IMG/VR virus record: IMGVR_UViG_3300006930_000009
Coordinates: 3,794-67,793 of that record
Direction: 5' to 3' (one strand)
Source: a virus
Lineage: Duplodnaviria > Caudoviricetes
DNA: 64,000 nt
In this document: positions 36,071 through 55,093 of the stretch, one piece after another
Layout: every line of letters starts with the position of its first letter
Numbering within the stretch: position 1 is the first letter of the stretch
Made by a program: the position numbers and the translations under genes
Notes under the pieces: model-generated
What the model saw: only the letters and a program-made list of their open reading frames with translations
Database searches by the model: none
Told to the model about the DNA's origin: nothing

Positions 36071-36275
36071 CCGTATACCCGAGAGAGATCATCTTTTCTT
36101 TTACCCTCTCCATCAAATCCGCATCAATGTCATCAGGAATGGGATCCCACTCTCCATCGGAGTGTTTGAATAATGCGGTATATAACCTGAGTTGTGTTCT
36201 GGTAATCTCGTCTTTACATACCCATCCTACCCGGGGATCATATACCGCAAGATCCCCATCGATATACATCTTCAT
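36063..36275 (-). CDS. Small hypothetical protein coupled to the metallopeptidase gene (possible immunity/partner)
   Basis: 70 aa, ATGA overlap with the 36272..37405 stop. Confidence 0.65.
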   Translation of the reverse strand: MKMYIDGDLAVYDPRVGWVCKDEITRTQLRLYTALFKHSDGEWDPIPDDIDADLMERVKEKMISLGYTVS

Positions 36276-37405
36276 TGCTTCGCCTCTTTTAATACATTAA
36301 CGATGAAATTAAAATAATCCGGATCTTTCTGATAGAAATGAATCGGATCCTGATAGAGGTATTGAATACCCATTGACAATATCTCTCCGGGTCTATCTTT
36401 ATATAACTTTCCACAATAGGGATTGGGGAAATTATCCGGTTTACATATCTCCGTATCGTTATAATTCTTTCCGGTAGCCTCCTTTAATGGGACAACGGGT
36501 GAATCTCCTGTCCGTTTTGCAAAAAACTCATTGCACCGGTTCTGGATATTTCCGGATTTCTCCAGTATGTGAGCCATCTCATGAACAAATGCTCTCCGGA
36601 AAGCTGAGTATTTCGCCGTCCAGCTGAACGATAAGCAGATGAAATTGTTATTATCACCCATCTCAGATTTAAATGATCGGTTCCCGGCAAGCGGATAGAT
36701 ATATGTAGGGCCTGTGGAAGGAATACCTTTGGTGATCTCCGCAAACCACTCTTTCGCTGGTTCAATATGTTCGTATAAATGTTGGGCAGCGAGATTATTA
36801 TGAAAGCTTTGTAACGGCACATCCGGATGATACTTCCGTATTTCAGACGTATCTGGTGGGATAGTTGTCGTATCCATGATATATGACGGCTGGTTCTCTT
36901 TCCCTTTATTGATATACCCGGCGAGAGCCTGATAAATTGGCTGCATCGCTTCCATCATCTGGGTCTCATATTTATTGATCTCCGGATCAACCTTCCAATC
37001 GATATATCGGAGAATTTCTTCAATCTCCTTTCTGACTTTATTTCGATCTTTCACATTACCTTTGATCTTTTTTAATTCAGTTAGTTGATCAGATAATACA
37101 TTTGCTCTCGTATACATCTCCTTCCGCTTATCCACATGGACCTGTAATTGACTGGTTATTGAGGTATATTGTTCCATATGGGGTTGAAATATGGTATTGA
37201 CATCGACTGTTTCCGGTTTAGCAACCGTTGCAAATTGATCTAATGGCTTATTCGGATTTGTGCGTTGGATTTCGTCAGTTTCATAATATTTCGCTCCTCT
37301 GGTAGTGGTTTTCACCTGAGCGTTTTTCGGCACCTTATCCGGATGTGCCGTGACATATACCCGGTATAAATCACATAATATTCTTTTACGGATGGGAGAA
37401 AACAT
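36272..37405 (-). CDS. N-terminally tagged protein with C-terminal zincin-like metallopeptidase
   Basis: HEMAH at 36583-36569, third-ligand segment EILSMG; YCGKLY and DPDYF motifs like phage MuF-associated peptidases; shared N-terminal tag. Confidence 0.8.
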   Translation of the reverse strand: MFSPIRKRILCDLYRVYVTAHPDKVPKNAQVKTTTRGAKYYETDEIQRTNPNKPLDQFATVAKPETVDVNTIFQPHMEQYTSITSQLQVHVDKRKEMYTRANVLSDQLTELKKIKGNVKDRNKVRKEIEEILRYIDWKVDPEINKYETQMMEAMQPIYQALAGYINKGKENQPSYIMDTTTIPPDTSEIRKYHPDVPLQSFHNNLAAQHLYEHIEPAKEWFAEITKGIPSTGPTYIYPLAGNRSFKSEMGDNNNFICLSFSWTAKYSAFRRAFVHEMAHILEKSGNIQNRCNEFFAKRTGDSPVVPLKEATGKNYNDTEICKPDNFPNPYCGKLYKDRPGEILSMGIQYLYQDPIHFYQKDPDYFNFIVNVLKEAKQ

Positions 37406-37482
37406 ACTATAGGGTCAATAACATGAGATAAAAACAGTAGTCAGTCGATAGGTTTTTATTTTCCGATTGCAAATAATTTATT

Positions 37483-38331
37483 GTGACAGTCATTGATAAC
37501 ATTCTGAATGCATTACAGCAACAGAATATGACGTCTGAGGAGATTCACACTCAGATTGGCGGAAAGCGTACTACGGTAAAAACCGAACTATCCAAGATGC
37601 GGCGAATGGGTCTGGTAAGTCAAACAGATACTCACTATACCATTACAAAATTAGGCTTATTACAGGCATTGAAAGCAAGTAAAGACGTATCCGTGCGGAG
37701 TTACAATCTTGGTATTGCGTCCAGAGATAACCTCTATAAACAACTTCCCAATCGGCAGATCTTCACCACCGCCGATATCTATCGGGATGTGTTGAGGACG
37801 GAAAAGACCGAGGCACTGAAATCTCAGGTAAAGTATTCACTCCAGCACCTACTGAAGGAGCGGAAGATTAAACGCGTGTCCCCGATCGATCAACCCACGG
37901 CTAAACTGGTACAATATGTGAAGGGTGTTGAAGAGGATGAATGGATATGCTCTGTATGCCAGCAGATTCTTCCGGCAAACTATTTCGATGTGATAAACTA
38001 TGGAATGCCGGGTGCGAAATGCCATGCATGTCGTACAGATGCCGAATTTGTACATGCGGAACCGGTTTCGGTAATGGATTTCATTACCGCTACCGATATT
38101 GAGGATCCGGGACTGCATGCAATGGAAGCCGTGCAGATGGCAATGGAACAGGTGTCTAATGGATCCCTGAAATTCATCGAAGAACAGGTAGGGATGATAT
38201 CCAAGTCACTCGGGAAGATTCACTGGATGGGTGAGCATATCGCCAGTATCGATAAGTCCATGCAGGAGATGGTGAAGATTAATAAAGCCACCCATGACCT
38301 GTTTGTGCAACTTGCAACCAAAAAACAATAA
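37483..38331 (+). CDS. Transcription regulator: two winged-HTH-like domains, Zn finger, coiled coil
   Basis: MTSEEI...GGKRTTVKTELSKMRRMGLV...Y.ITKLG; CSVC...CHAC. Confidence 0.7.
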   Translation: MTVIDNILNALQQQNMTSEEIHTQIGGKRTTVKTELSKMRRMGLVSQTDTHYTITKLGLLQALKASKDVSVRSYNLGIASRDNLYKQLPNRQIFTTADIYRDVLRTEKTEALKSQVKYSLQHLLKERKIKRVSPIDQPTAKLVQYVKGVEEDEWICSVCQQILPANYFDVINYGMPGAKCHACRTDAEFVHAEPVSVMDFITATDIEDPGLHAMEAVQMAMEQVSNGSLKFIEEQVGMISKSLGKIHWMGEHIASIDKSMQEMVKINKATHDLFVQLATKKQ

Positions 38332-38443
38332 CTTCTATTTTAGTTTAATTTTATCATTTAACACCGAACTACATATTTAATACTATTCTATATTAAATTT
38401 GTAATACAAACCTATATACGCTAGTATTGGAAAATGATAATGT

Positions 38444-39124
38444 ATGCGAGCATATCTCATTCCTGATGGGTTAAACCTGCCTATCAAGCAACCGGTAAAT
38501 TGGGATATTACCTCATGGGCGTATAATGACGCTCCATTGATTGATGGGGGAATCTTTTGCCGGGGATGTTTCATCAAAGTGATTGACCGGACCTGCACCA
38601 CTGAACACCAGCAAAAGACCATCGATGCGTTTGTCAAGGAATATGGGAGAGAACCTACCGATATCGAACGAATGTTCCTGCTTCGGATCACCATGCTTGA
38701 GACGGCAGTGAAATGTCTGAATGAGGATATGGTAAATACTACCGACCAGTGGGTGTCCCGGGATGATGAAGGGAAATTGAGAGTGACTGATTGGACTGAT
38801 GCAAAGGTACCGGATGAACGGATCAAAGACTACTCGCTGAAAGAATTCAATCCAAATACCTGTTTCTCGATTGCATCGGCTGCAGCACGGGGAGCCCGGA
38901 GTTCCAATATCATCTGTATCAATAAAGATTTACAGGATCGGGTAACGTATGAGATTGAATCCATGCTGAATGGAAAGTCATCATCTGATGGTCTGTGGTA
39001 TATCAAAACATCAGCCATTGAATGGATCAAAACAAAGATCCCGGAGACTGATACGGATGTGTTTGTCATCAAAGGATCAGATACTACCTGCAAAATCACG
39101 GTCAGCAAAAGACCGGAATCTTAA
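38444..39124 (-). CDS. Hypothetical protein
   Basis: 226-aa ORF with CRGC. Confidence 0.6.
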
Positions 39125-39151
39125 TATTTTCTCACATCCTATTTTATTGCC

Positions 39152-39346
39152 ATGCGGAGAGCGTGGACACAAGAAGAGATCGATCAGGTAACCTATTTAT
39201 ACTGTTATACAAATAAATCCGCAGCAGAAATAGGGCAAATTATTGGCCGGACACAGGGATCTGTATCATCAAAAATAGGTACGTTAGGGTTAAAGGATGA
39301 ACGTTACTTACCGCCGTTTAAGCAAACGCACGGGCAGCAAACGTAA
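39152..39346 (+). CDS. Small HTH protein (GcrA/Myb-like)
   Basis: WTQEEI......KSAAEIG..IGRT.GSV..K...LGL. Confidence 0.7.
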   Translation: MRRAWTQEEIDQVTYLYCYTNKSAAEIGQIIGRTQGSVSSKIGTLGLKDERYLPPFKQTHGQQT

Positions 39347-39749
39347 TATTCGTCGTCCCGACAGTGATATCCACAGCCGTGCACTGGAAGAGTTTCATAC
39401 CACCAGCGGTACCTTTTGCTACAGGAACGAACGCACATGACATCTCTGCTCCGGCATCAAAATCATCTGCCCGAATGGGTTCAGTTGTAGTTACCACATA
39501 GATACCATTTGTTTTTGCATCGGTCTGATCTTTCACCAGTACCCGGTTCCCGGCAGCAAGGGTGACGCCATCGATAGTAGCCCCGGCTGCAAGTCCGGTA
39601 GCGAGATCAGCAATGTTTGCAGTAGTCGCTACAACACAAGCAGTCTTCATCAGTGAGGCTTTTAAAAGAGCGTTGATAGCGAGAGTGGCGGATTGTTCCT
39701 CAGCAACATCAGTCTGATTGTTCCGGATTTGATCCATGAATGTTGACAT
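39318..39749 (-). CDS. Stand-alone virion fibre-type domain protein
   Basis: TIDGVTLAAGNRVLVKDQT...NGIYVV motif common in phage structural proteins; TATA ~25 nt above ATG 39749. Confidence 0.7.
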   Translation of the reverse strand: MSTFMDQIRNNQTDVAEEQSATLAINALLKASLMKTACVVATTANIADLATGLAAGATIDGVTLAAGNRVLVKDQTDAKTNGIYVVTTTEPIRADDFDAGAEMSCAFVPVAKGTAGGMKLFQCTAVDITVGTTNITFAARAFA

Positions 39750-39972
39750 GACCAAATGGTAGGAGAGCCCCGGATATAAAAGATCGTCTCTTTAAGATAT
39801 CCTGCATTTCTTCCACGGTATAATGATTGTCACAGGGTGGAATCTTCTTTCGTCTGTCACGGACTTCATCAACCCGACTCTGCCAGTCTCCCATATCGCA
39901 ATACGGGTTCCATCCATCGATATCATGCCAGAAACAGCATATCTCACAGGGGCGAAGAGTCCGGTCAATCAT
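39709..39972 (-). CDS. Small Cys-rich hypothetical protein
   Basis: CEICC...C...C; operon context. Confidence 0.5.
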   Translation of the reverse strand: MIDRTLRPCEICCFWHDIDGWNPYCDMGDWQSRVDEVRDRRKKIPPCDNHYTVEEMQDILKRRSFISGALLPFGHVNIHGSNPEQSD

Positions 39973-39984
39973 AAAAATAGAGTA

Positions 39985-40374
39985 TTACAGAAGTGCAGTG
40001 ACTTCTGATTCTTCGATGATAGTAATCTCGCGTTCCTTGATATACAGGTAAACCTTGGACTTGGTATCCTTTCTACCCAGCTGGATTACTCCAGTGAATT
40101 CGGCATCAACGTCAAAGAAGTACGGTTCCCCGAGAATGTTCTGATGACGTTTAACGAAATCACCGTCAAACTTGTATTTTGGATGTGTCTTGGTTAACAC
40201 GCGAATCCAGAGAGGGCATGCGGACCAGTCATCATGATTGGTCTTCCCGTCCACGAGGAGTTTAATGCCCCAGAACTGACCATCATTTGCAAAATATACA
40301 TCGCCGAAACCGGCGATTGCTATGGGATCATTACACTTATCCCAATTAATAGGCTTACGCTGCGATGCTGCCAT
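39985..40374 (-). CDS. Hypothetical protein
   Basis: 129-aa ORF with intergenic TATA-like element upstream. Confidence 0.6.
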   Translation of the reverse strand: MAASQRKPINWDKCNDPIAIAGFGDVYFANDGQFWGIKLLVDGKTNHDDWSACPLWIRVLTKTHPKYKFDGDFVKRHQNILGEPYFFDVDAEFTGVIQLGRKDTKSKVYLYIKEREITIIEESEVTALL

Positions 40375-40399
40375 ACATACATGTTATCAACGGTAGTAT

Positions 40400-40684
40400 T
40401 TATACCTGCTCCAATTCCTGACGCAAATTGTTCAGCATTTCTAATTTTGACCGGCGATCTTCAGCCCGAGCATCACAGATAACTGCATTGCAATATTCGT
40501 TAAATGCATTGGTGATGATCTCAAAATGAGGATCGTTGACATTAATACTAATGGTAGCCCTGCAATTATCCGGAATAGAAATGGTAATATACTTTTTCGT
40601 ATTGGTGATACATCCAAACCGGTTCACAACATCCCGGTTTACTTCATCCTCTTTTGAGTGGAACACATATCCCATACCATACAT
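40400..40684 (-). CDS. Hypothetical protein
   Basis: 94-aa ORF. Confidence 0.55.
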   Translation of the reverse strand: MYGMGYVFHSKEDEVNRDVVNRFGCITNTKKYITISIPDNCRATISINVNDPHFEIITNAFNEYCNAVICDARAEDRRSKLEMLNNLRQELEQV

Positions 40685-40755
40685 ATTTCATTCATGATGA
40701 TTTAAACGATTGGGTATACAAAATAATTATATCATCCAGCGACGAATGATAGCAT

Positions 40756-41013
40756 ATGCTTGTCGAATTGAAATGCATTATTGATATCCCGGAAGACCGG
40801 GTAGATGATTTCTGTTACGATATCACAACTGAAATCGAAAACATGCAGGAGAAAGGCACGGGGAGATCATTCCAACAGATCAAATCAGAGTCGATCGCCA
40901 CCGTAATAAATACGGTGATGAATGCTGATAAAGGATATCAGCGATACATCGTGTTCAAAAATGCAGAGTGTTCATCAGAGTTCTTCCGGGTCCACAATAT
41001 CAGTCACCGCTGA
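40756..41013 (+). CDS. Hypothetical protein
   Basis: 85-aa ORF, convergent on the tagged gene. Confidence 0.5.
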   Translation: MLVELKCIIDIPEDRVDDFCYDITTEIENMQEKGTGRSFQQIKSESIATVINTVMNADKGYQRYIVFKNAECSSEFFRVHNISHR

Positions 41014-42306
41014 CTCTTCTTCAACATCAGGGCCATTAAATATTTTATCTGATTCTTCATCGGTCATATCATCAGGTGTATCAAAGTCAAAATTTGCAAT
41101 ATGATCCGGCTCCCATACGCCATCATTTTCATGATCAATTGTTATTACCCGTTTTGACTTTGACATATAGATAACATCTTTTTTGATATAATCAGGTAAT
41201 GTATCCCTATAGTTTCCGGGAAGTGCATGCACCACCGGCTCCCATACACTCATAGGTAATTCAAGCGTAGTGAAATCATTGATAATATCATATGCAGTCG
41301 ATGCATTAGGCTTTTTCTTCATTAACTCAAACGCAACCGGTTTTAACTTATCCATTAACCGATTATTAATATCGTCATTTGTGAGAATTTTCCCGGTTTC
41401 TTTATCCAACACAGAATTATCTTTTGTATACACGATCGAGTCTTCCACTTCCTTCGCAATAGCATGAGTTGATTTCGCTACATAATCGGGTTCATGAATA
41501 CGAAGCATTGCAGTGGTAGCTTTTAACGGTTCTGATGGGTTTACATCCTTAATGTCGAAGAGATCTACATGTTCTTCATAAAATGCATTGGCAATGTTTA
41601 GAAGATGATTTTTTGGATAGGCTCCAACTGGAGAATCAAATGGTTCCCGGTGATTGGCGATAATATCTTCAAATTCATCTGCCCGGGCAATAGCCATATT
41701 TACTTTATCGACAAGTTCAGGGAACGTACCTATCTTTTTTAAATAATAATTAATCTGCCGTAATTTACTTTTACTCTTATCTAAAGACTCGCTGATGGTG
41801 CGTTTTTGATTAATATAACTGCCAACTTTATGCCGGGTAGACTGCGCCTCATGACTGGATGGATCCGTATCAATTTTACGTATTAAATGATCAGCGAGTG
41901 CGTATTTCGCACCATATTGTTTCCTCTCAGATGTAAATCGATCATCCTGATGATACTCTTCTAAATTGTCTATAGCGTACGTATCTTCAGCATCTCTCAA
42001 TGATTCAGGTAATTCAGCCGGAATATATTTTGCATATTGCCCATACGGAAGATTACCGGTCGATTTCGTATGATAGCTATAGGATGGGTCTTTCTTAACT
42101 TTCTCCAAATAGGCCCGACGGTCTGCTAAAATAGACTCTTTCGTATGAGTGGATAGATCCGGATTATTACTATAGGGTATCGTATAATACCGCCCACCCT
42201 GTTCACCGGTTTCGACCGATCGTCCTTTCGGAGCATCTTTCCCATCGGAAAGATACACTTTCCGTAGTGCTAAATCATAAATAATCTTCCGGCGGAGGTG
42301 CAGCAT
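40975..42306 (-). CDS. N-terminally tagged protein, unknown C-terminal domain, acidic tail
   Basis: 443 aa; begins RRKIIYDLALRKVYLSDGKDAPKGRSVETGEQGGRYY. Confidence 0.75.
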   Translation of the reverse strand: MLHLRRKIIYDLALRKVYLSDGKDAPKGRSVETGEQGGRYYTIPYSNNPDLSTHTKESILADRRAYLEKVKKDPSYSYHTKSTGNLPYGQYAKYIPAELPESLRDAEDTYAIDNLEEYHQDDRFTSERKQYGAKYALADHLIRKIDTDPSSHEAQSTRHKVGSYINQKRTISESLDKSKSKLRQINYYLKKIGTFPELVDKVNMAIARADEFEDIIANHREPFDSPVGAYPKNHLLNIANAFYEEHVDLFDIKDVNPSEPLKATTAMLRIHEPDYVAKSTHAIAKEVEDSIVYTKDNSVLDKETGKILTNDDINNRLMDKLKPVAFELMKKKPNASTAYDIINDFTTLELPMSVWEPVVHALPGNYRDTLPDYIKKDVIYMSKSKRVITIDHENDGVWEPDHIANFDFDTPDDMTDEESDKIFNGPDVEEESAVTDIVDPEEL

Positions 42307-42340
42307 ATATACATTTAAAGGAAAGGTGTGTATTTAAACG

Positions 42341-42574
42341 TCATTCAGTATACGGATTACCGCCATCAATAACATATCCCGGGTCTGTAGGGGGCTGTGT
42401 TTTATATATTTCAAGTAATAAATCTATCGCTTCCCCTAAGGTTTTCGGGCAATGGCCTACCAGTTCAATCCATGCGGCTTCATCGTCTAAATTATATGTG
42501 AGAATGTGAGATATAACGACATCCTGTTCGGTATTTGTGCAATCAATACGACGAATATCGTCAATAAATGTCAT
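42341..42574 (-). CDS. Small hypothetical protein
   Basis: 77 aa, ATGA coupled to upstream fibre gene. Confidence 0.55.
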   Translation of the reverse strand: MTFIDDIRRIDCTNTEQDVVISHILTYNLDDEAAWIELVGHCPKTLGEAIDLLLEIYKTQPPTDPGYVIDGGNPYTE

Positions 42575-43410
42575 CCTCCAATCTCCGATGTTATCGTTGC
42601 AGTAAATTCCCGGGTTACTCCGGATACGACAAACCCGTGGGTATACACCGATACGATTTCAATGTCAGGATCATCGAGTTCAATATCCGGAAGCATACTC
42701 TTCAATGACTGATAGGGAAAAAACCCAGACAGTGCTGGGTATTTCGTCACCTCAAAATACCGCATGCAATTCAGTAGTTCATCATAATACGGCGTAGGGG
42801 AGAACGGCATGTCGGAATCACCAAGATACATCTGCACATGAGTGATACATAACTCCGTAATCTGTTGACCAAATATCAATACCGCAATATTCCGGTTATC
42901 TCCAACCACGGTCGCCCCATCAGGGATCACTGTCTTCCACTCTTCCTCAAGCGGTGATAAGGATACATGATCACTCGCCATATACCACCCTTCTTCTAAC
43001 GATAATGATGACCAGTTGGTAATAGGGTCAAGAAACGGGGCATTGGGGGTACCAGTCCATCGTAATATGGCCGATCCTACCATCTCACCGGTACCGGATG
43101 CGGCAAATGATACGGATGCACCTAATCCAGTGAACTTTTTACTATCCACCGTATCCATAATCTGAAAAATGCCGACATCTATCGGTTCAATGGATGCTAT
43201 TTTTAATGCCGAACAGTGCATCGACGCATCTTTCTCTACCCGTGCCGTAACTCCATCCGGTAACAGAATACACCAGCGATCCGGACCAAATGACATATCC
43301 GTAACCATGAGTGAGGTACCACGCTGCCATATATCCATACACTCGTTATCAATGGCATTACGAAACAGATTTGCCTGATAATCATACCCGGATGAGTTCA
43401 CCAACTTCAT
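42571..43410 (-). CDS. Fibre-associated carbohydrate-binding-like protein
   Basis: NLF.N....DIWQRGTS.....GPDRW and PFSP.PY.DEL..C.RYFE motifs; start 43410 gives ATGA overlap (track 43470). Confidence 0.7.
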   Translation of the reverse strand: MKLVNSSGYDYQANLFRNAIDNECMDIWQRGTSLMVTDMSFGPDRWCILLPDGVTARVEKDASMHCSALKIASIEPIDVGIFQIMDTVDSKKFTGLGASVSFAASGTGEMVGSAILRWTGTPNAPFLDPITNWSSLSLEEGWYMASDHVSLSPLEEEWKTVIPDGATVVGDNRNIAVLIFGQQITELCITHVQMYLGDSDMPFSPTPYYDELLNCMRYFEVTKYPALSGFFPYQSLKSMLPDIELDDPDIEIVSVYTHGFVVSGVTREFTATITSEIGG

Positions 43411-43895
43411 GTAACCCTCAGTGTACCAACTGCGTTCACCACCGCAAAAGTAGTATTTGCCACAATGCATACTAATGTGACGGTATTATATCGTTGATTA
43501 TTTGCCGATCGAAGATATCCGCCTGTACCTAATGATGTTGTTGTGTTTAAATACACGATCCTTTGATTAGCATTCTGTGCAACCCTCCATGTACCGGCAT
43601 TCGCCGTGCCATTACCGACGATATAAAACATATCGCCGACTTTACAAGAGGTTGGTAGTGTTAAAATACATTCATTCGCCGTATTAGTAATATACCCAGT
43701 ATTCACCAGCATGGTAGCTGCCGATGTCGCCACTACCCATTGAGTAGTCCCAATAGATGGCAAATTCGGATACGCTAATACCCCATTCCCGATCTTTAGC
43801 TCATTCCGGGACGCGTCATATCCAAACTCTCCATTCGCCGGTATGACGGTGTTCCATTGAGCAGACGTACCTCGTTTAGGACGGATCCTTACCAT
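43407..43895 (-). CDS. Short fibre protein with Mtd-N/hyaluronidase-like N-terminal domain
   Basis: RI..KRGT.AQW...PA.GEFGYD....LKIGNG..Y.NLP, then T4 gp34-like GYITN...LTLP....GD segment. Confidence 0.75.
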   Translation of the reverse strand: MVRIRPKRGTSAQWNTVIPANGEFGYDASRNELKIGNGVLAYPNLPSIGTTQWVVATSAATMLVNTGYITNTANECILTLPTSCKVGDMFYIVGNGTANAGTWRVAQNANQRIVYLNTTTSLGTGGYLRSANNQRYNTVTLVCIVANTTFAVVNAVGTLRVT

Positions 43896-43906
43896 AAAAA
43901 TAAAGA

Positions 43907-44812
43907 TTATGCGGGAGTACCGCCGTCAATCTCTCCCCATGAGGGGTCAGCAGCATCACCGTGTGATATCAACACATTCCCATCAATGGTGGATGCAGGT
44001 AACCGGGTCCACCCGGTAGCGTTCCTGAACAGGATATCACCCTGAGTACCACCAACAGGTACTTGAATAAAGCTGGATGGTCCATATGCACTGTTTACCA
44101 GTTCTCCACCAGCAGACAAAGTCGGGAAGTTACCGGCGGTCGGAGTACCAACAATAGAGATATACTTGTCATCGTGTAGATGATCCGTGAATGCGATCTC
44201 CTTCTCAGTACCGGCCAGACCGGCTTTCCACACATCAGCAGACTCATCCCAGTAGATACTGGCATTTGTCGAAGTACCACGTTCGACCTCAATACCACCG
44301 CCTACGGTAGGTGCTCCGGTGACATTGTTATTCAGCACGATAACATTATCATCGACGGTAAGTGTGGTAGAATTGATGGTGGTCGTTGCACCGGTAACGG
44401 TAAGGTTCTTCACCGTTAAATCGGCATAATCAGAGTCGTCAGAGTTTCGAAGCTCAAACTTCCCGGAGTTGTTCTTAATCTGAATCGGGTCAGTACCGTC
44501 CTGATCGATGGTAAATGATGAGGCGGTTGTCCCGGTAATCGAGGTAATAGACAGGGTAGCGTTCACGAACTTCCCGGATCCGGCATTCCATTGAATGACC
44601 TGTCCATCGGTCAGTGAACTCAGGTTGACATCTTTCAGAGTTGCCAACTTGTTAATGGTGTTTTCTGCTGGCAGTGCGGTCCATACATGGAGCCCGTCAC
44701 CCCGGCGAATTTCACCAGTGGTCTCATCGAGACCGTACTCACCTGTCTTTAATATCAGAGTTGACGCTGTCCATTGGACGGTCGTCCCCCTACGCATTCT
44801 GATAACAGACAT
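43907..44812 (-). CDS. Fibre protein with Mtd-N-like domain
   Basis: IRMRRGT..QW.....L..GEYGLD..TG..+.GDG..W..LP; L.DV....DGQV+.WN; IEVERGT. Confidence 0.8.
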   Translation of the reverse strand: MSVIRMRRGTTVQWTASTLILKTGEYGLDETTGEIRRGDGLHVWTALPAENTINKLATLKDVNLSSLTDGQVIQWNAGSGKFVNATLSITSITGTTASSFTIDQDGTDPIQIKNNSGKFELRNSDDSDYADLTVKNLTVTGATTTINSTTLTVDDNVIVLNNNVTGAPTVGGGIEVERGTSTNASIYWDESADVWKAGLAGTEKEIAFTDHLHDDKYISIVGTPTAGNFPTLSAGGELVNSAYGPSSFIQVPVGGTQGDILFRNATGWTRLPASTIDGNVLISHGDAADPSWGEIDGGTPA

Positions 44813-46137: not shown

Positions 46138-46139
46138 TG

Positions 46140-46595: not shown

Positions 46596-46597
46596 AG

Positions 46598-46708: not shown

Positions 46709-46717
46709 AATAGATAT

Positions 46718-46738
46718 TTTGTAGTAAAAAGAGATAAA
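46718..46738. repeat. 21-bp intergenic direct repeat, copy 2
   Basis: Identical to 46117-46137. Confidence 0.9.
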
Positions 46739-46739
46739 G

Positions 46740-46898: not shown

Positions 46899-47003
46899 TT
46901 AATTCATCGCCCCGATACAATATACAAATCCTACACCCCAACAGCAAAACAGGAAAACTACGAATAGTAGAGCATTAATATTTGAAGTATCGTTTATATT
47001 CAT
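46899..47003 (-). CDS. 34-aa single-pass membrane micro-protein
   Basis: MNINDTSNINALLFVVFLFCCWGVGFVYCIGAMN. Confidence 0.4.
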   Translation of the reverse strand: MNINDTSNINALLFVVFLFCCWGVGFVYCIGAMN

Positions 47004-47204
47004 CTATTATAATCGTGGTATGATGAGATAAATGTTATGGGGCGTTACTACGCGTATACGTTGTATTGGGTAGTTACTATGCAGGATCGTGGTAGTCAAT
47101 TCCATAGTTTGTAATACCTGTGGTCTATCATCATATTACACGTATTTTTGAAAACGGAGTTTATTTTAGCAATTTATTTATACTAATACAACTACTATAT
47201 TTGT

Positions 47205-48407
47205 ATGGAACGAAGATACCTTGGTATCGACGTATTAAACGCAGCAAAAAATAGAATATCATGGGCGTTTGATACATTTGATACTATAAGTGTAAGTTTT
47301 TCTGGAGGGAAAGACTCTACAGTGATGCTGCATTTAGTTGCAGATGAGGCAAGGCGGAGGAATAGGATGATACATTGTTTATTTGTTGATTGGGAAGCAC
47401 AATACTCATTAACCATACAGCATGTAAATGCAATGTTTTCATTATACAATGATGTAATCATCCCATATTGGATCGCATTACCGTTTAAAACAGTAAATGC
47501 CGTTTCCCAATTTGAGCCTGAATGGATGTGCTGGGATCCTGATAAGAAAGATCTATGGGTACGGGATCGGCCGGAAAATGCAATAACTGATGAGGCATAT
47601 TTCCCATTCTACACCCACGGTATGACGTTTGAAGAGTTCATGCCTGCATTTAGTAACTGGCTTGGTAAATCATCCGGAATCATGATAGGTATAAGAGTGG
47701 GTGAGAGTATGCATCGATATCGGACGTTATTTATGGAAAATAAAACTACTTTGGATAACAAGCAGTTCACTACAAAGATAAATGATTCAATTTATAACTG
47801 TTATCCAATATACGACTGGACTGATTCAGACATATGGGCATTCCATGGTATTACGGGATCCATATATAATAAATTATATGATAGAATGCATCAAGCAGGA
47901 TTGCCGTTAAAACATATGCGAGTATGTGAACCATATGGGTTAGAACAGCGGGTTGGTTTATGGTTATATCACGCTATAGAGCCTGAAACATGGGGGAAAA
48001 TAGTAGCCCGGGTGAATGGTGCTAACCAAGGAGCGTTGTATGCAAAAACAAAAGGTAACATTATGGGAAATGGAACACTTACACTACCAGCGGGGCATAC
48101 GTGGAAATCATTTGCATTACAGTTATTAGAGTCGATGCCTGTTTCAACAAGTGATCATTATAAAAATAAGATTGCAGTGTATTTAAAATGGTATTCTTCC
48201 CGAGGGTATCAAGATGGGATACCGGATGCACAAGAGAATGATCTTAAACATGCCGATAAATCACCGTCATGGAGACGAATATGTAAAACAATACTTATGA
48301 ATGACTATTGGTGTAGATCATTATCATTTTCACCAACAAAATCATCAGCATATACTCGTTATCTGGATAGAATGAAACAGCGGAGGGAAGAATGGAATCT
48401 GATATGA
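47205..48407 (+). CDS. ibrA: PAPS-reductase-like PP-loop protein with DUF3440 (IbrA/YbdN family)
   Basis: SFSGGKDS PP-loop, DWEAQY, IGIR..ES..RY, YPIYDW...DIW, RVCEPYG.EQR.GL, SWRRIC...L.NDYWC motifs. Confidence 0.9.
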   Translation: MERRYLGIDVLNAAKNRISWAFDTFDTISVSFSGGKDSTVMLHLVADEARRRNRMIHCLFVDWEAQYSLTIQHVNAMFSLYNDVIIPYWIALPFKTVNAVSQFEPEWMCWDPDKKDLWVRDRPENAITDEAYFPFYTHGMTFEEFMPAFSNWLGKSSGIMIGIRVGESMHRYRTLFMENKTTLDNKQFTTKINDSIYNCYPIYDWTDSDIWAFHGITGSIYNKLYDRMHQAGLPLKHMRVCEPYGLEQRVGLWLYHAIEPETWGKIVARVNGANQGALYAKTKGNIMGNGTLTLPAGHTWKSFALQLLESMPVSTSDHYKNKIAVYLKWYSSRGYQDGIPDAQENDLKHADKSPSWRRICKTILMNDYWCRSLSFSPTKSSAYTRYLDRMKQRREEWNLI

Positions 48408-48907
48408 CATGGACGAAAGATCACCCAGTGTCAAATGTACAATGGGTCGATGCGACATTAGTTATTGCAAATAATTACAACCCAAATAAAGTTGCAAAAC
48501 CTGAGATGGATTTACTCATGGAAAGTATTACATCTGATGGATTCACCCAGCCTATCGTTGTATGGGAGCATAATGGAGTATATGAAGTTGTAGATGGATT
48601 CCATAGACATCTTATAGGGAAGAAGTTAGGTATGAGTCATCTACCGGTTACCATAATTAACCAGCACCGAACAAAGAAAGGGGATAGGATGGCATCAACG
48701 ATACGGCATAATCGAGCACGGGGAGTGCATCAGGTATCATCCATGAGTGAAATTATTCAAGAGATGGTGAAATTAGGATGGGATGATAAAAAGATAGGGA
48801 AAGAGTTGGGAATGGAGCCCGATGAAGTGTTGCGATTAAAGCAGATAGGTGGGTTAGCTGAACTATATGCCAATACGGCATTATCGGAGGCATGGGATGT
48901 TAAATAA
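48392..48907 (+). CDS. ibrB: ParB/sulfiredoxin-like protein (IbrB/YbdM family)
   Basis: HPV..V.WV.....AN.YNPN.VA..EM.LL..SI..DG+TQPIV, VVDGFHR, RMASTIRHNRARG.H. Confidence 0.9.
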   Translation: MESDMTWTKDHPVSNVQWVDATLVIANNYNPNKVAKPEMDLLMESITSDGFTQPIVVWEHNGVYEVVDGFHRHLIGKKLGMSHLPVTIINQHRTKKGDRMASTIRHNRARGVHQVSSMSEIIQEMVKLGWDDKKIGKELGMEPDEVLRLKQIGGLAELYANTALSEAWDVK

Positions 48908-49523
48908 TGATGTGATGATTGATGGGTTAGAAGAGTCAATCCTTTATTTATATTTAAAAATGAGACTCCCTATCAATGATATTGCAACCACATTATCATA
49001 TCCTATCGCTAAAATTAATAAATTTCTTAAAGTGACAGGGATGATTGATGTTGTTAAATATAAAAAAGTAAGACCATGGGTTTACCATTCAATTATTGAA
49101 TTATATTCTCATAATATGAGCACCCGTGATATTGCAAATTATGTCCCAATAGGAGCCACTATGATTGCTAATATACTGCGTGAAAATAATATTCTTCGAT
49201 CGACCCGGGTAAAATCTACTATCACTGATACCGAAATACATGATATTATCAATCAGTGTAAACAACAGTATCCGGATATTATAGACAGTATCCCTGATAC
49301 TGATGGGTGGTTAGATCAAAACCACCCATTGTATAATATCATATATACTATTGAAGCAATGGAAGCATTATATGGACGTAATTGGTATAATAGATACCCA
49401 CCGTGCCCTACGTGCGGTAAACCAGTTAAAGTATTACCATGTAGAGATAGAACCGGTGATGTCCATTATTGTGACGATATATGTTATCGGAAATGGCAAA
49501 AGGTGAATCATGCGCTTAACTGA
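48897..49523 (+). CDS. Tandem-HTH protein with C-terminal Zn finger
   Basis: Two HTH-like segments; CPTCGK...C...YCDDICY; GGAGG RBS before ATG 48897. Confidence 0.65.
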   Translation: MLNNDVMIDGLEESILYLYLKMRLPINDIATTLSYPIAKINKFLKVTGMIDVVKYKKVRPWVYHSIIELYSHNMSTRDIANYVPIGATMIANILRENNILRSTRVKSTITDTEIHDIINQCKQQYPDIIDSIPDTDGWLDQNHPLYNIIYTIEAMEALYGRNWYNRYPPCPTCGKPVKVLPCRDRTGDVHYCDDICYRKWQKVNHALN

Positions 49524-50376
49524 TGAACAGATATCAATTATAAACCGAGAGTATGATGACGGTGTTCCCGTATTAACCATATGGAAAACGCATGATATTC
49601 CTAAAAATCGTATATTTGAATATTTAAAAGACGCAGGAAAGATTAGAAAAGGCGGTGCAGTAAAAACCATTACATCAGAAATGGAAAATGAGTGCATTGA
49701 ATTATATAAATCAGGGTTATCATCATCACAAATCCATATACAGGCCGGAATATCAAAAACATCAATAATTAATATTATTAAAAATGCGGGGTGTTCCCGA
49801 TCATTATCTGAATCTCAATCATATCGATCTTACCCTGATGATATAAAGCAATTAGCATTTGATCTCTATGAAGAAGGTTACTCTACCGGGGATATATGTG
49901 AAATCATTGAGGTTTCTCACCCATCAAATATCATCAAATGGTTGAAACAGGCAAATATTCACATCCGAAGTCGTTCAGAAGCGGCAAAGATAAGTAATAA
50001 TCATTTTATGAGGGGAAAGCATGGAGATGAACACCCAATGTGGAATAATGGTTCATCATATACTTATTGTCCATTATTTAATGATGAATTTAGAGAACGT
50101 GTTCGATCATTCTTTAATTACACATGTCCATTATGCGGGAAGCATCAGGATGATGAAAAGCGACGATTGCATGTACATCACATTCATTATAAAAAGGATT
50201 CATGCTGTAATCCAGATTCACCCAGATTATTTATAGCACTATGCCACTCATGCCATATGAAGACCAATAAAAATAGAGAATATTGGGAAAATCATTTATC
50301 AAGTATTATATCAACTAAATTTAATAATAAATGCTATTATACAAAATCAGAATATGATACTTTAATTACTCAATAA
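49510..50376 (+). CDS. Multi-HTH + HNH endonuclease (homing-endonuclease-like)
   Basis: Three HTH repeats, NUMOD3-like GKHGDEHPMWNNG, CPLCG...LHVHHIHY...IALCHSCH..TN. Confidence 0.8.
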   Translation: MRLTDEQISIINREYDDGVPVLTIWKTHDIPKNRIFEYLKDAGKIRKGGAVKTITSEMENECIELYKSGLSSSQIHIQAGISKTSIINIIKNAGCSRSLSESQSYRSYPDDIKQLAFDLYEEGYSTGDICEIIEVSHPSNIIKWLKQANIHIRSRSEAAKISNNHFMRGKHGDEHPMWNNGSSYTYCPLFNDEFRERVRSFFNYTCPLCGKHQDDEKRRLHVHHIHYKKDSCCNPDSPRLFIALCHSCHMKTNKNREYWENHLSSIISTKFNNKCYYTKSEYDTLITQ

Positions 50377-50462
50377 TAGCATATGTAAAAATGATAGTAT
50401 TTATACTTATCTATCATTTAACTAACGTTATTTTTGATAAAGAAGAGTGATTTAAAGGCTGT

Positions 50463-51347
50463 TTAACCTTTAAGACCAGAAACAACGCAGATAAATTCCG
50501 GAGCATCGACTATGGGCTCTGCCATACATAAGTTGTAGTACCTATGATCGATCATAATATTGCCCGTCTGTGCGCCTTCTACAGCGACAGTAGTGAGTGG
50601 GATCGCCTCAGCGAGATAACCGAATGCCTGTCTACGCAGAACACACATCTGACCGGTGTCAGTTGGGTCGATTGCGTTGTCGATGATGATGTTCAGACCG
50701 ACGAGGGATGGAACCTGTCCGGACTCAACATAGCTGACAGAGTTATAGAGCTTGTTACGGATGATATCGAACTTGGTCATACGCTCGAAAGTCGCTGAGG
50801 ACATGATGACATCAGTTGCTTCGAGGTAAGTGCTGTCACGAATGAGGCGTTTTGCCTGTTCGAGGTCAGCGATTGGATCTCCCATACCTGCACCGGTGTT
50901 AGCGGTCCAGTCGGATCCATCCGGAATCTCAACAATACCGGTAGTATTGAGGATGCTATCGAAGATCAGGTTGTCTTCAAAGGCTCTCATACGGTAGGCT
51001 GCACGCTCGATCTTACGACCGATAGTGTTGACCATGCCGAACTTCCGCTCCATCATAGAGACATCAAAGTATGCACCGTATGGACGGATGGCCTTTGATT
51101 TCTTTCTGTGGTCGAAGTCAAGACTTGGGAAACCTCCCTGCTCCTGTAACCATGATACGTTACCGGTCACATCCTGCTCTTCGAGGTATGCGACTGCGTC
51201 TCCCTGAGTCTGTTCGACTCCCATGAGGGTACGCCCGATGAGGGTCTTTTCGTAGACCATCTTGATACGAGCTGCGACAATTGGCGGCTTGATATCAACA
51301 TTGGAGTTATACGAAAGATCCTGCTGAGTAAATACTGTTGTAGACAT
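50463..51347 (-). CDS. Major capsid protein (HK97 fold)
   Basis: 294 aa after protease and decoration genes; YG..F.VS.E, DPIADL..A...I, IMSSATF, G.V..L.GL.+I motifs. Confidence 0.9.
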   Translation of the reverse strand: MSTTVFTQQDLSYNSNVDIKPPIVAARIKMVYEKTLIGRTLMGVEQTQGDAVAYLEEQDVTGNVSWLQEQGGFPSLDFDHRKKSKAIRPYGAYFDVSMMERKFGMVNTIGRKIERAAYRMRAFEDNLIFDSILNTTGIVEIPDGSDWTANTGAGMGDPIADLEQAKRLIRDSTYLEATDVIMSSATFERMTKFDIIRNKLYNSVSYVESGQVPSLVGLNIIIDNAIDPTDTGQMCVLRRQAFGYLAEAIPLTTVAVEGAQTGNIMIDHRYYNLCMAEPIVDAPEFICVVSGLKG

Positions 51348-51349
51348 GA

Positions 51350-51790
51350 TTACACCAGAATCTGAACTACGGAAGCTGCTCCACCACCGATCCAGATCTT
51401 TCCGAATCCTTTCTCACCTGCACCGGCTTTCTTTACCCGGCCGGCTGTGGTCGTGTCAAGAACAACCCGGTCACCTGCGACAAGAGTCTCTGCTGCAACT
51501 GCACGAATGAGTGCCTGCTGAAACTCGAATGGAAGGACGTTCACACGGGATGCAGTGTCTGGAGAGAGCTTAACTCCCTGCTTACTTCCATCATGGATAC
51601 CGATGGTAACGATACCGAATGCTTCTCCAGAAGTCGTTGCCTTTTTCACGGTAGCATTACCGGTAATCTGCACAATCTGACCGGGAGCGTAGTAGAAACC
51701 TTCGGAATCTGCGGTTACTCCAGTCATATCAACAGCGGCAGAGAGGGGTTCTCCTCTCTTGAGCTCGGCTGCAATTGGGGATACTGCCAT
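51350..51790 (-). CDS. Capsid decoration/cement protein
   Basis: G.+V.ITG..TV.KAT....AFG+V...A..TL.AGD.V...T.GRV.K pattern; between scaffold and MCP. Confidence 0.75.
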   Translation of the reverse strand: MAVSPIAAELKRGEPLSAAVDMTGVTADSEGFYYAPGQIVQITGNATVKKATTSGEAFGIVTIGIHDGSKQGVKLSPDTASRVNVLPFEFQQALIRAVAAETLVAGDRVVLDTTTAGRVKKAGAGEKGFGKIWIGGGAASVVQILV

Positions 51791-51795
51791 TTATT

Positions 51796-52305
51796 TCACC
51801 GTCCTGTAAATTTGGTCACTGGTCCAAACAGACTGAGTGCTGCATCTGCTGGAGTAGTTCCGTCAGCACACAGATCGACTTTTGCCCGACCGGTCAGGAA
51901 CCTGTCAGACAGAGACATTGGCTTCTCTTCCTCTGGCATCGGAGGTGCAGCCGGTGGTGCGGGTGCGTCCATTGGAGGAGCCGCTGGCTCTTCAGGGGCT
52001 GCCTGCTTTACTGCCTGATCGATCTTTTCCTGTGCTCTCTGTGCAAAGTTCTTGAGCTGTTCGACGTACTTCTGGAGCTGTTCGACAGTCATACTCTGGA
52101 TAAACTCTTCATCGACTTCGAGATTCAGGGACTTGATTTCTGCAATCAACTGACCCTTTTCCTCAGCAACATCAACCTGATCGCGGAGACCTTCTATTTC
52201 GGCTTCAGCGGTTCCAAGCGCCCGCTGTGCCTCTTCGAGATCCGCTACAAGCATTTCATTGATCCGCTGAAGCTCGATGATCTGCTGCGACTGGTCATCG
52301 GTCAT
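51796..52305 (-). CDS. Nested in-frame scaffold protein (169 aa) from internal start
   Basis: AACGGTTTATATAGTT promoter inside the gene (TATA 52329-52336), 24 nt above in-frame ATG at the start of the coiled coil. Confidence 0.6.
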   Translation of the reverse strand: MTDDQSQQIIELQRINEMLVADLEEAQRALGTAEAEIEGLRDQVDVAEEKGQLIAEIKSLNLEVDEEFIQSMTVEQLQKYVEQLKNFAQRAQEKIDQAVKQAAPEEPAAPPMDAPAPPAAPPMPEEEKPMSLSDRFLTGRAKVDLCADGTTPADAALSLFGPVTKFTGR

Positions 52306-53391
52306 GTCTGTTAAGTTTTTCGGATAACTATATAAACCGTTGTCGGAATCTGATAGGTTACCCTCTACTACTTCAACGTTTCCATCATCCTCGCTACCAA
52401 CAGCCTCATTCACCTCATCCTGATGAGCCTGTAAGTGGGCAGTAACGGCTTCGATAAACTCTTCCGGGATACCTGCCTGACCAATACCCTGCATGGCTTC
52501 AGACAGACCATCGATGATCAGATCTCCGTCTGCATTGTGGTGAGGGAGTTTATAGGTCGAAACGTCTGATATATCGCCGACGAATGCAAACAGTGACGGG
52601 TTATCGTTATCCACTACGGGAGCAGTCCAGTCCTCATCAACGATATCGTATGATTCCGGATTATCTGGAACGAAGTTATTACCTTCTTTACCGGCCTCTT
52701 CTTCAGGAGTTTCCTCAGGGACTTCATCCCGGGCATCTTCCTGCTTCCCGTCCTGTACCGGGGTTACACCGGACTCCTGAATTTCATCAGGTCGGAGTTC
52801 TTTCGTCTCCCCATCTTCGGACAGGTTTGTTTCCACCTTTGGCGTCTCATTTGATGAACTGGATTCTATCAGGCGAGCATTTGAGTCGGCAGGCTGGATA
52901 ACGTTCGCGATATGGATCAGTTTCATGTCGTGGATCTTGTTATTGGAATCCATCTGACCGATTACCCGGACAGAGAAAAACGTGTTATCCGGATCCCGTT
53001 TAATCAGCTTGACCAGATCTCGCTGCATACTGGTGTCTTGCCAGAGGTCAATATCGGCAATAGCGGCTTTCCGGGCTGGATCATACCAGATATTTACGGT
53101 AGACCCTATTTTCATCATAGGATTATCAGTATGTCCGATGACGATCGGTGCCGGGACATAGGCGAGGTTTCTCTCCGACTTAAGGTTCACACAACCGGTG
53201 ACCATCTTTTCGATCTCCGGTCCGGTAAATGAGATTCGGTTATGGGTACCTTCGGATACTGCTAATATCCGGCGGCGTACCGGAGCATCAGCGGCCATCG
53301 GTGCATTATCTGCGGATAGGTTTACTACTTCGGTCGAACTGACCGGAATAGTACTCAAATCCATAATCACCGTACGCATTTGAGAGGTCAT
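51796..53391 (-). CDS. Prohead protease fused to acidic linker and scaffold
   Basis: His in IVIGHT, Ser in FFSVR, HIANV..PAD..AR; acidic region; C-terminal coiled coil and Pro/Ala-rich tail. Confidence 0.8.
   Translation of the reverse strand: MTSQMRTVIMDLSTIPVSSTEVVNLSADNAPMAADAPVRRRILAVSEGTHNRISFTGPEIEKMVTGCVNLKSERNLAYVPAPIVIGHTDNPMMKIGSTVNIWYDPARKAAIADIDLWQDTSMQRDLVKLIKRDPDNTFFSVRVIGQMDSNNKIHDMKLIHIANVIQPADSNARLIESSSSNETPKVETNLSEDGETKELRPDEIQESGVTPVQDGKQEDARDEVPEETPEEEAGKEGNNFVPDNPESYDIVDEDWTAPVVDNDNPSLFAFVGDISDVSTYKLPHHNADGDLIIDGLSEAMQGIGQAGIPEEFIEAVTAHLQAHQDEVNEAVGSEDDGNVEVVEGNLSDSDNGLYSYPKNLTDMTDDQSQQIIELQRINEMLVADLEEAQRALGTAEAEIEGLRDQVDVAEEKGQLIAEIKSLNLEVDEEFIQSMTVEQLQKYVEQLKNFAQRAQEKIDQAVKQAAPEEPAAPPMDAPAPPAAPPMPEEEKPMSLSDRFLTGRAKVDLCADGTTPADAALSLFGPVTKFTGR
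52326..52341 (-). promoter_or_regulatory. Internal promoter for scaffold-decoration-MCP transcript
   Basis: Matches the AAC..TTTATATA.GTT consensus of 5131, 34305, 44838, 57759 and 63034 promoters. Confidence 0.6.
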
Positions 53392-53498
53392 AGTACCGGA
53401 TAGGTGGGATACCGGTATATTTATATAGGAGTCGAAGTTCTCACAAATAAAGTTATTCTGACAAAAGAATTATCTGGATAGGTGGCAAACAGATCTCT

Positions 53499-53792
53499 AT
53501 GGCTGAATATACCATGGAGCAAGTTACCCCATCTCCCATGTTAAAGAGGATCATGTCGGGAGATGATGGTGTGTATTGTTACCAGTCAAAAAAGATCGTC
53601 GATCCGGAAAATCCTACTGAAGAGAAGATGTTTTCTATTGATGTGAATGAAGAAGCACTGGCATTATTATCACGGGTGAAAAAGAGTCGTGGTGGATCAT
53701 TCAGCGATGTGATTATACACTGGTGCAATACGATCCGGGAAAATGAGGAGATAAATATGGATAAAGCACTTAACGAGTTCTATCGTCGTTAA
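53499..53792 (+). CDS. Ribbon-helix-helix-like regulator / antitoxin-like protein
   Basis: SIDVNEEALALLSRVKK.RGGSFSDVI motif resembling archaeal DUF217-type RHH; divergent from head operon. Confidence 0.6.
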   Translation: MAEYTMEQVTPSPMLKRIMSGDDGVYCYQSKKIVDPENPTEEKMFSIDVNEEALALLSRVKKSRGGSFSDVIIHWCNTIRENEEINMDKALNEFYRR

Positions 53793-53851
53793 GCAGCGGG
53801 TTCCGCTTATACACTTATTAAATTATTAGACCGGTTTTATCACCGGTAACA

Positions 53852-55093
53852 TTACTTCGGGTTCTTTTTAATACGTTTGTATCTAACCGACTCTTTATGA
53901 GTCACCCCGTCAGGAGTCTTATACGTAATTTCTGCTTTTGGTGTGGGTTCTTTCTTTGGATTTGTAACCTTTTCAACCGGTTTAGTATCTTTCTGTACCG
54001 GTTTCTGACCAGTGTGATGATAAGTAGTACCAAACTGCTGTTTGTCGATGGCGGCAACATGCTGAGCGTCCATGATGTCTAAGTTCTTCATGGTTTTATT
54101 ACATTTCTCCATTTCACTCACATCATCATTCGCTTTTGCAGCCATATACTTTTTGTATACCGACTGCTGTTGTGCCGATATGACATCCTGACGTTTTCTC
54201 AGCTGAGGTAAGGTAAACTTTGTCGATAGGTAATCAATCGCTGCATCTGATTCAGACTTGAGAAGTTTAGACAAGTCGCCGCCAGCCCGGGATGCAGCGT
54301 CGGCAAGGTACGACTCTACGTCTTCTACAGATTTCTTTACCGGCGTCTTTTTAGCAGGTGTTGTCTCCTTTGCTGTCTTTTCAGTCTTCGCCGGATCACC
54401 ATATGCAATCTCTTTCATCACGTCAAGAGTACTCTTTGATTTGACTTTCTTCAACGTCTTTTCAGCACCGGATTTCGCTTTCTTCACATCAGCCAGTGCC
54501 TTACTCGGCTGACGTGCTCCCTTTTCAACCGTAATCTCTTTTGGTTTATATCCAGTCTTCAATGCCTTATCCAATTCATCAGGCTCCCCGTCAAAATATG
54601 CTGCCTCATGCTTTAATCGTTTCTGACAGGATGACGGATCCCCTTTTGCGGTAGCAACGATTACCGGCTGCCGGGGTGACTTCCCCTGACCGATAGGCTC
54701 ATAGCGTAATACCGCACCGTCTTTTGTCGGTAGGATGTGGAACCGACCGGCCATGTGAAATGAGTCAGGTTTACCAGTGGATTTTCGATCATTGTATTTC
54801 GGTTTACGGGTTACCGATGAAGTGTCCGGTTGTTCACCATCCCGGAAATGCATATGGGCAACGCCACCATTATGATCTTTCCACCCGGTAGTGACATTTG
54901 CTCGTTTATATAACCGGGTTTTTGTACGCATCACTTCTTTGTGTTCAGGTGACACATCTTCAGAATTATAGAATTTACCCCCACGTTTCCCGGTCTGCAC
55001 TGATACGCCCGGAGGAGGAGTGGCTGTTCCACGGAGATAGATCTTTCTCAGATCTATCTCAATTCTCTTTTGCAGTTCAGCGAGGTTTATCAT
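53852..55093 (-). CDS. N-terminally tagged basic (Lys-rich) protein at the usual MuF position
   Basis: 413 aa; begins QKRIEIDLRKIYLRGTATPPPGVSVQTGKRGGKFY. Confidence 0.75.
   Translation of the reverse strand: MINLAELQKRIEIDLRKIYLRGTATPPPGVSVQTGKRGGKFYNSEDVSPEHKEVMRTKTRLYKRANVTTGWKDHNGGVAHMHFRDGEQPDTSSVTRKPKYNDRKSTGKPDSFHMAGRFHILPTKDGAVLRYEPIGQGKSPRQPVIVATAKGDPSSCQKRLKHEAAYFDGEPDELDKALKTGYKPKEITVEKGARQPSKALADVKKAKSGAEKTLKKVKSKSTLDVMKEIAYGDPAKTEKTAKETTPAKKTPVKKSVEDVESYLADAASRAGGDLSKLLKSESDAAIDYLSTKFTLPQLRKRQDVISAQQQSVYKKYMAAKANDDVSEMEKCNKTMKNLDIMDAQHVAAIDKQQFGTTYHHTGQKPVQKDTKPVEKVTNPKKEPTPKAEITYKTPDGVTHKESVRYKRIKKNPK

Follow-up and report, generated by a model that had tools for sequence, protein, structure and literature searches.

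The window analysed here, a 64,000-nucleotide stretch comprising bases 3794-67793 of a linear IMG/VR virus contig of 67,793 bp (CheckV completeness 46%), encodes a tailed virus whose terminase, portal and capsid genes all lie on the minus strand, with long tail and fibre genes further down. The host is likely archaeal, judging from the labels of metagenome-assembled genomes (MAGs) and from related viruses. Three proteins of this virus, P0001, P0002 and P0003, begin with a common N-terminal tag, which an earlier reading of the DNA (the original prediction) took for a capsid-targeting signal replacing the head protein MuF. The genes concerned and their surroundings are as follows (aa, amino acids):

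36063-36275, minus strand: 70-aa gene overlapping the stop of P0001
36272-37405, minus strand: P0001, 377 aa
37271-37405, minus strand: tag of P0001, residues 1-45
40975-42306, minus strand: P0002, 443 aa
42175-42306, minus strand: tag of P0002, residues 1-44
50463-51347, minus strand: major capsid protein, HK97 fold (phrog_1650, 3e-18; PF25209 precomputed for its cluster)
51796-53391, minus strand: 531-aa protein, probably a prohead protease in residues ~1-185 with a coiled-coil scaffold part behind it
53852-55093, minus strand: P0003, 413 aa
54956-55093, minus strand: tag of P0003, residues 1-46, a clade-specific N-terminal helix and then the module described below, a predicted beta-meander
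55090-55903, minus strand: two small genes of 130 and 153 aa in the interval between portal and P0003
56091-57716, minus strand: portal, Mu type (PF06074, 4.7e-13, and portal PHROGs)
57889-59613, minus strand: large terminase

Similarity among the three proteins is limited to their first ~45 residues, which are 29-40% identical, and the rest of each protein is unalignable in pairwise BLASTP. The N-terminal matches all begin at the extreme start of the protein, with E-values of 1e-3 (P0001/P0002), 5e-8 (P0002/P0003) and 3e-5 (P0001/P0003). Each tag begins at the first start codon of its frame, with a stop 3-10 codons upstream. A hidden Markov model (HMM) of the three tags, run over the six frames of the window, found exactly these three proteins; an improved HMM applied to the whole 67,793-bp record returned the same three and no fourth copy. 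A word-indexed search with the tag profile also recovered only the three window proteins. The shared N-terminus on unrelated remainders that had been proposed is therefore real, and its alignment is significant for every pair.

The three bodies are as they had first been described. P0001 continues from its tag into a helical middle and a C-terminal zincin-like domain with an HExxH motif (HEMAH, residues ~245-373), which matches phrog_33618 (4e-25), phrog_20397, phrog_8561 and phrog_19443 'minor head protein'. The body of P0002 has an acidic tail, and its gene immediately follows tail-fibre-like genes in the same orientation; the nearby genes at 42571-43470 and 43907-44812 match tail fibre and Mtd_N families. 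P0003 carries a domain conserved to about residue 208 followed by a lysine-rich, variable C-terminus. Pfam, NCBIfam and PHROGs returned no function for P0002 or P0003. P0003 and the portal had no match as single-protein queries against IMG/VR, and neither P0003 nor P0008 had one by tblastn against 50,697 phage records. The AlphaFold model of P0003 from its single sequence was poor, with a predicted local distance difference test (pLDDT) score of 48.

To place the tag in a wider context, we scored the profile of the three tags against 1.84 billion (1.84e9) representative proteins and obtained 159 protein clusters at E <= 1e-3, 21 of them at E <= 1e-10 and the best at 1e-26. Most of these matches cover only positions 15-45 of the profile and recur 2-5 times per protein, internally, in proteins of 400-1800 aa. 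The shared N-terminus of the window proteins is composed of a short clade-specific helix ([RK][RK]I..DL) and one copy of a module of ~32 residues. The consensus of 266 copies, [LIV]xK[AS][RK][VI]Y[LVI]x5AP.G..V..G.RGG.YYE[TS], is sharply conserved at the Tyr (98%), the Pro (99%), the Gly-Gly pair (95/88%) and the Tyr-Tyr pair (80/97%); two flanking residues are less conserved, a Lys at position -2 (64%) and a Glu immediately behind YY (65%). Conservation ends four residues upstream of the module, and a low-complexity stretch rich in Gly, Ser, Glu and Pro follows downstream.

Copies were counted in 151 proteins, namely the profile hits listed and the three from the window, and the module HMM found a copy in 149. 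One copy is present in 46 of these, two in 77, three in 18, four in 5 and five in 3, with a median gap of 220 residues between copies. A copy lies within 30 residues of the start in 53 of the 149 proteins, amounting to ~18% of the ~289 copies; the other ~82% are internal or C-terminal. The original prediction of a specifically N-terminal signal fits the three window proteins but is not supported by this count, in which internal, repeated copies are the majority. Mean identity is 55% between copies of one protein and 44% across proteins, a weak signal of concerted evolution.

An AlphaFold2 model of P0003 residues 1-56, computed with 38 natural copies as the alignment, has a helix at residues 4-15 and strands at 17-20, 32-34 and 40-43 (mean pLDDT 74, and 81-86 over the module). 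The module is accordingly modelled as a three-stranded beta-meander followed by a flexible acidic or Gly/Ser linker. The best structure matches to this model in the BFVD belong to HVTV-1 gp116 and to 'uncultured archaeal virus' proteins, among them one with the annotation XkdF-type protease; a Foldseek search of the PDB returned nothing at E <= 0.001. The module itself lies outside every Pfam family matched on module-bearing proteins, a profile search found it in no PDB sequence, and among PHROGs it occurs only inside phrog_24083, whose function is unassigned. It is mentioned neither in the study of polyvalent proteins (Iyer et al. 2017, PMC5512222) nor in the magrovirus paper. A resemblance to the WW domain of SAV1 (E = 0.075 with the three-sequence profile) was lost with the 38-sequence profile, and we discarded it.

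A scan of genome contigs with the tag also pointed to two Bacteroidota loci (L008:5274-5936 and L009:4324-6096), whose unrelated proteins end in Q-T-G-K-R-G-G-K-Y-Y-[YI]-N-S-x-G-N-K-T, corresponding to the second half of the module only. Since no more than the G-K-R-G-G-K-Y-Y half is shared, and at the C-terminus of unrelated proteins, we did not count them as members; this motif may be a separate, basic hairpin, possibly a convergent one.

Which domains accompany the module was examined with Pfam, for 28 hits one by one and for 64 more in bulk. Many bearers have Peptidase_S78 at their N-terminus, with the first module copy directly behind the protease domain, and others are Phage_portal domains with C-terminal extensions. 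Topoisomerase IB is found on 11 module-bearing proteins. The remaining partners comprise DUF5661, ADP-ribosyltransferases, S-adenosylmethionine (SAM) lyase, GNAT, HD, NUDIX, MuF, poly(A) polymerase-like, rubrerythrin/EncFtn-like, PI3/4-kinase-like, ATLF-type zincin, RelA_SpoT and zeta toxin domains. Copies are located between Pfam domains with a low-complexity linker behind them, and many bearers combine at least two effector or enzymatic domains in a single chain. One bearer comes from a Methanosarcinales MAG. The portability of the tag across many C-termini, as originally proposed, is thus evident from the profile search, whose partners include S78 proteases, portals and effector-type enzymes.

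The neighbourhoods of these genes are often those of virion assembly. One locus (L014) encodes a portal-module-MuF fusion of 934 aa, an S78 polyprotein of 832 aa with two copies, and then a 339-aa protein and a RelA_SpoT protein, each with a copy near its N-terminus. Another (L005) has a portal with two copies, followed by an ADP-ribosyltransferase and SAM-lyase protein with two copies, and a separate MuF. In L004 an S78 polyprotein is followed by two proteins that begin with the module, and L012 and L013 hold arrays of adjacent multi-copy proteins. Module genes stand beside virion genes in these five loci, in HVTV-1, and in the window for P0003 and for P0002 with its fibre genes. P0001 and some tagged genes of related viruses are not beside virion, portal or terminase genes.

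By tblastn against the 50,697 deposited phage records, the only viruses found to carry the module were the haloarchaeal HVTV-1/HVTV-2 and HCTV-5. The complete HVTV-1 genome (102 kb, 174 features), scanned with the profile, contains five copies: two in gene 113, one at the start of gene 115, whose 1313-aa product has Zeta_toxin and ADP-ribosyltransferase domains, and two in gene 116. All five lie between gene 112, considered the portal because of its position behind the terminase, and gene 119, annotated as prohead protease; the same interval contains gene 114, a MuF-like 'head assembly' gene. In HCTV-5, a 1311-aa zeta toxin/ParB protein (gene 114) bears three copies and a 145-aa protein (gp26) adjoining ribonucleotide reductase bears a fourth, so that 3/4 of its copies fall within the cluster from portal to prohead protease. 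The arrangement of an N-terminal module, a zeta-toxin body and two C-terminal modules is split over genes 115-116 in HVTV-1 and fused in the 1311-aa product of HCTV-5 gene 114.

The tag persists in orthologs from related viruses. The closest of them has a major capsid protein 90% identical to that of the window and is represented by syntenic contigs of 178 kb and 113.6 kb, with the order terminase, portal, three small genes, P0026, a 466-aa protein, a homolog of the 531-aa protein, a 146-aa protein and the major capsid protein. P0026 (L002:10001-12001) is a tagged protein of 666 aa that is 58% identical to P0003 over 208 residues and then diverges; its variable, lysine-rich C-terminal part repeats the peptide P-S-T-F-[ND]-A-W-[EK]-K-A-T-H-P-D twice. 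In the 466-aa protein the tag is degenerate; an HD-like motif is present, but Pfam gave no match. The same virus encodes an ortholog of P0001 (P0009, 55% identity) and a further tagged protein of 500 aa, and P0002 has a full-length ortholog, P0045, at 28% identity. Another relative (L016) has tagged proteins of 926, 217 and 289 aa among three N6/N4 methyltransferase genes, the 289-aa one being a SAM lyase. In the clade of the window virus alone, the tag heads at least 10 unrelated bodies, including the SAM lyase and the HD-like protein, and it is therefore not tied to one C-terminus; the swappable C-termini of the original prediction are confirmed.

P0003 occupies the position after the portal, separated from it by the two small genes, which are kept in the closest relative and absent from the relatives that have MuF. 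It lies, as had been noted, between the Mu-type portal and the 531-aa protein with its prohead-protease-like first ~185 residues. Two loci with capsid proteins 54-57% identical to that of the window (L010 and L011) have the order portal, PF04233 MuF (414-433 aa), small gene, homolog of the 531-aa protein (33-35% identical), small gene and major capsid protein; neither carries a module within 10 kb on either side. A relative with a capsid protein 69% identical has no gene between the portal and the homolog of the 531-aa protein. No MuF had been visible in the window, and a search with PF04233 agreed, giving no match at E <= 10 in the whole record. An hhalign comparison of P0003 and P0026 with four MuF proteins returned a probability of 0.1%. 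Elsewhere the module and MuF coexist, in HVTV-1, L005 and L014, and in L014 they are fused. The proposal that the tag replaces MuF therefore holds in part: tagged P0003 does stand where L010 and L011 have MuF, but the two coexist in other viruses, so that any displacement of MuF by a tagged protein would be no more than local, in the lineage of the window.

The 531-aa neighbour of P0003 is probably a fusion of prohead protease and scaffold. Over residues 5-185, its nearest clusters in the ESM Atlas, by features and structure, are S77, S78, S80 and DUF2213 (template modelling score 0.62-0.72), and its His, Ser and C-terminal strand motifs are conserved in homologs of 441-534 aa at the equivalent position in related viruses. 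Residues 310-455 form a tropomyosin-like coiled coil. The Pfam S78 models PF04586 and PF14550 and the PHROG protease models did not match it, an hhalign comparison with S78 domains was not significant, and the module HMM found no copy in it.

Several further features of the clade were observed. The 70-aa gene after P0001 gave no match in a family search; P0009 is likewise trailed by a small gene, of 81 aa (L001:11125-11370), and the 70-aa product could be an inhibitor or immunity-like partner. A multi-PAS protein without output domain is encoded at 34338-35627 on the plus strand; its counterpart (L001:11773-13086) adjoins the P0001 ortholog, and in the virus encoding P0167 a PAS protein is located between terminase and portal. 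The terminase genes of relatives (L002/L003:4155-7163 and the P0167 contig) encode 982-1002 aa compared with 574 aa here, and one has a LAGLIDADG match; the terminase therefore appears to contain inteins of different size across the clade. The related 178-kb contig also holds several OrfB_IS605/TnpB (Cas12f-like) genes (L002:528-1676, L017:12137-13270 and L017:19413-20540), one of which adjoins the tagged protein P0071.

Taken together, these data establish the tag as a homologous and portable module that is associated with prohead-internal proteins and effector-type enzymes. By analogy with the capsid-targeting sequences of T4 and P1, we lean towards the view that it is a portable docking element by which proteins are loaded into the procapsid. 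Archaeal tailed viruses place it at the start of separate proteins and also between the domains of giant multi-enzyme (polyvalent) proteins encoded among the head-assembly genes, whether after prohead-protease domains, after portal domains, or between portal and MuF. While the procapsid is being assembled, every copy would attach the protein or domain it belongs to onto a repeated partner within, which may be the core of scaffold and protease or else the capsid protein on its inner face. The cargo would then end up in the head together with the DNA, ready to be delivered to the host. P0001, with its zincin peptidase domain, P0002 and the post-portal protein P0003 would accordingly be virion-internal proteins. 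We count in favour of docking the L014 locus, where the module is borne by the fusion of portal and MuF, by the S78 polyprotein and by the two proteins that follow it, the placement of P0002 in a fibre-gene operon, and the 'minor head protein' PHROG matched by the zincin domain of P0001.

A broader version is possible, although we hold it only tentatively: the module may be a general loading code of archaeal tailed viruses, including haloviruses, magroviruses and the viruses of methanogen and Archaeoglobi relatives, with MuF displaced from its slot in some lineages. Anything preceded by the module would be enclosed in the capsid through one conserved docking site, and giant polyproteins and separately tagged sets would be interchangeable ways of packing a variable arsenal of host-modifying proteins.

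Several observations weigh against docking. The module bearers are virion proteins by prediction. Late expression is not assured for every tagged gene, since some are found away from head modules, in the company of methyltransferase and anti-restriction genes or of ribonucleotide reductase. An all-against-all comparison of the module-bearing loci found no common partner family. The portal needs no loading signal, and the copies on portals consequently call for another rationale. Similarity within proteins is also modest, the nearest neighbour of a copy being in the same protein for only 23 of 224 copies.

The tagged genes away from head modules suggest that the module might instead act in the infected cytoplasm, binding nucleic acid or a host factor or serving as an oligomerisation or regulation handle of counter-defence enzymes. 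Such a role would fit the placement of several genes, for example that of the L016 SAM lyase amid three N6/N4 methyltransferase genes, that of P0071 close to Lar and a DNA methylase, and that of HCTV-5 gp26 next to the reductase. It would also fit a cargo set made up mostly of nucleic-acid and host-modifying enzymes. We nevertheless consider it unlikely, for it leaves unexplained both the copies on portal, MuF and prohead-protease proteins and the confinement of the module to the head cluster of HVTV-1. The net acidic charge of the haloviral copies is contrary to DNA binding, and the weak WW resemblance, obtained with three sequences, did not last. Alternatively, the module could be a processing punctuation, at which the prohead protease or another protease recognizes and cuts polyproteins, the N-terminal copies on separate proteins being the leftover of a cut product or its equivalent. 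The position of the first copy directly after the S78 domain that opens many bearers, the location of copies at domain boundaries, the conserved Lys at -2 and Glu after YY as plausible candidate cut sites, and the protease-like protein adjoining P0003 would all fit. However, a folded beta-sheet unit of 30 residues far exceeds the needs of a protease site, the Glu is absent from two of the three window tags (P0002 and P0003), and the many bearers with a single N-terminal copy have nothing to separate, which makes cutting in place of docking quite improbable in our judgement. The two functions could also be combined, as they are in the T4 capsid-targeting sequence. To the notion that the three N-termini are unrelated and alike through chance or low complexity we attach almost no credence: the region is short and its identity low, but every pairwise E-value is significant with every match at residue 1, the profile retrieves hundreds of sharply conserved copies with E-values down to 1e-26, and the tag is preserved in the orthologs of related viruses.

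Very little is known about the contents of archaeal tailed virus heads besides DNA. If the module does load proteins into procapsids, its 32 residues would let virion-delivered enzymes of haloviruses, magroviruses and uncultured archaeal viruses be listed from sequence; those already seen include ADP-ribosyltransferases, zeta toxins, SAM lyases, topoisomerase IB and peptidases. In that case, proteins of choice could also be brought into archaeal virus capsids by attaching the module to them. A culturable test system is available in Haloarcula infected with HVTV-1 or HCTV-5. The comparison within the clade further indicates that a head-assembly slot, that of MuF, can pass to a different protein in close relatives.

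Among known systems, most module bearers fit the description of polyvalent proteins, giant combinations of ADP-ribosyltransferase, zincin peptidase, MuF/portal, nuclease and methylase domains whose genes neighbour those of the virion and for which packaging and injection have been predicted (Iyer et al. 2017, PMC5512222). The text of that study does not mention haloviruses or archaeal viruses. The three window proteins differ in carrying a single cargo: each has one body, and so lacks the two or more effector domains of a polyvalent protein.

P0003 also resembles MuF (SPP1 gp7 / Mu gp30) and the MuF polymorphic toxins, which likewise occupy the post-portal slot and join a fixed, head-associated N-terminal part to variable C-terminal effectors. 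It differs in that PF04233 is absent from the record, that hhalign relates neither P0003 nor P0026 to MuF, and that the module coexists with MuF elsewhere.

A third comparison is with the encapsidation tails of prohead proteases. The C-terminal tail of the HK97 protease (gp4) is reportedly an encapsidation signal, a finding ascribed to Duda et al. in 2013. In the S78 polyproteins the first module copy stands directly after the protease domain, where those proteases carry theirs; no sequence relation was established, however, and the protease-like protein of the window is without a module. The propeptide of SPN3US gp245 offers a further comparison for this encapsidation part (PMC7411985).

A further parallel is that of the T4 internal proteins IPI-III, Alt, and P1 DarB, which carry N-terminal capsid-targeting sequences (PMC7411985, PMC9024508). 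The T4 sequence has ~10-20 residues and is removed by gp21, whereas the module is a conserved, folded unit of ~32 residues; the P1 signal shows no consensus among the Dar proteins, whereas the module is sharply conserved and has no sequence similarity to the T4 or P1 signals. Unlike them, it is mostly internal and repeated, and portals and proteases bear it too. That phage cargo can share loading tags is an established concept, and the present module is one that has so far gone unnamed. What the tags of the three window proteins have in common with the T4 and P1 signals is their placement, as a short N-terminal element, on otherwise unrelated proteins; in T4 and P1 these include an ADP-ribosyltransferase and anti-restriction proteins, and the element is portable, serves scattered genes and directs its cargo into the prohead for delivery with the DNA (PMC7411985, PMC9024508).

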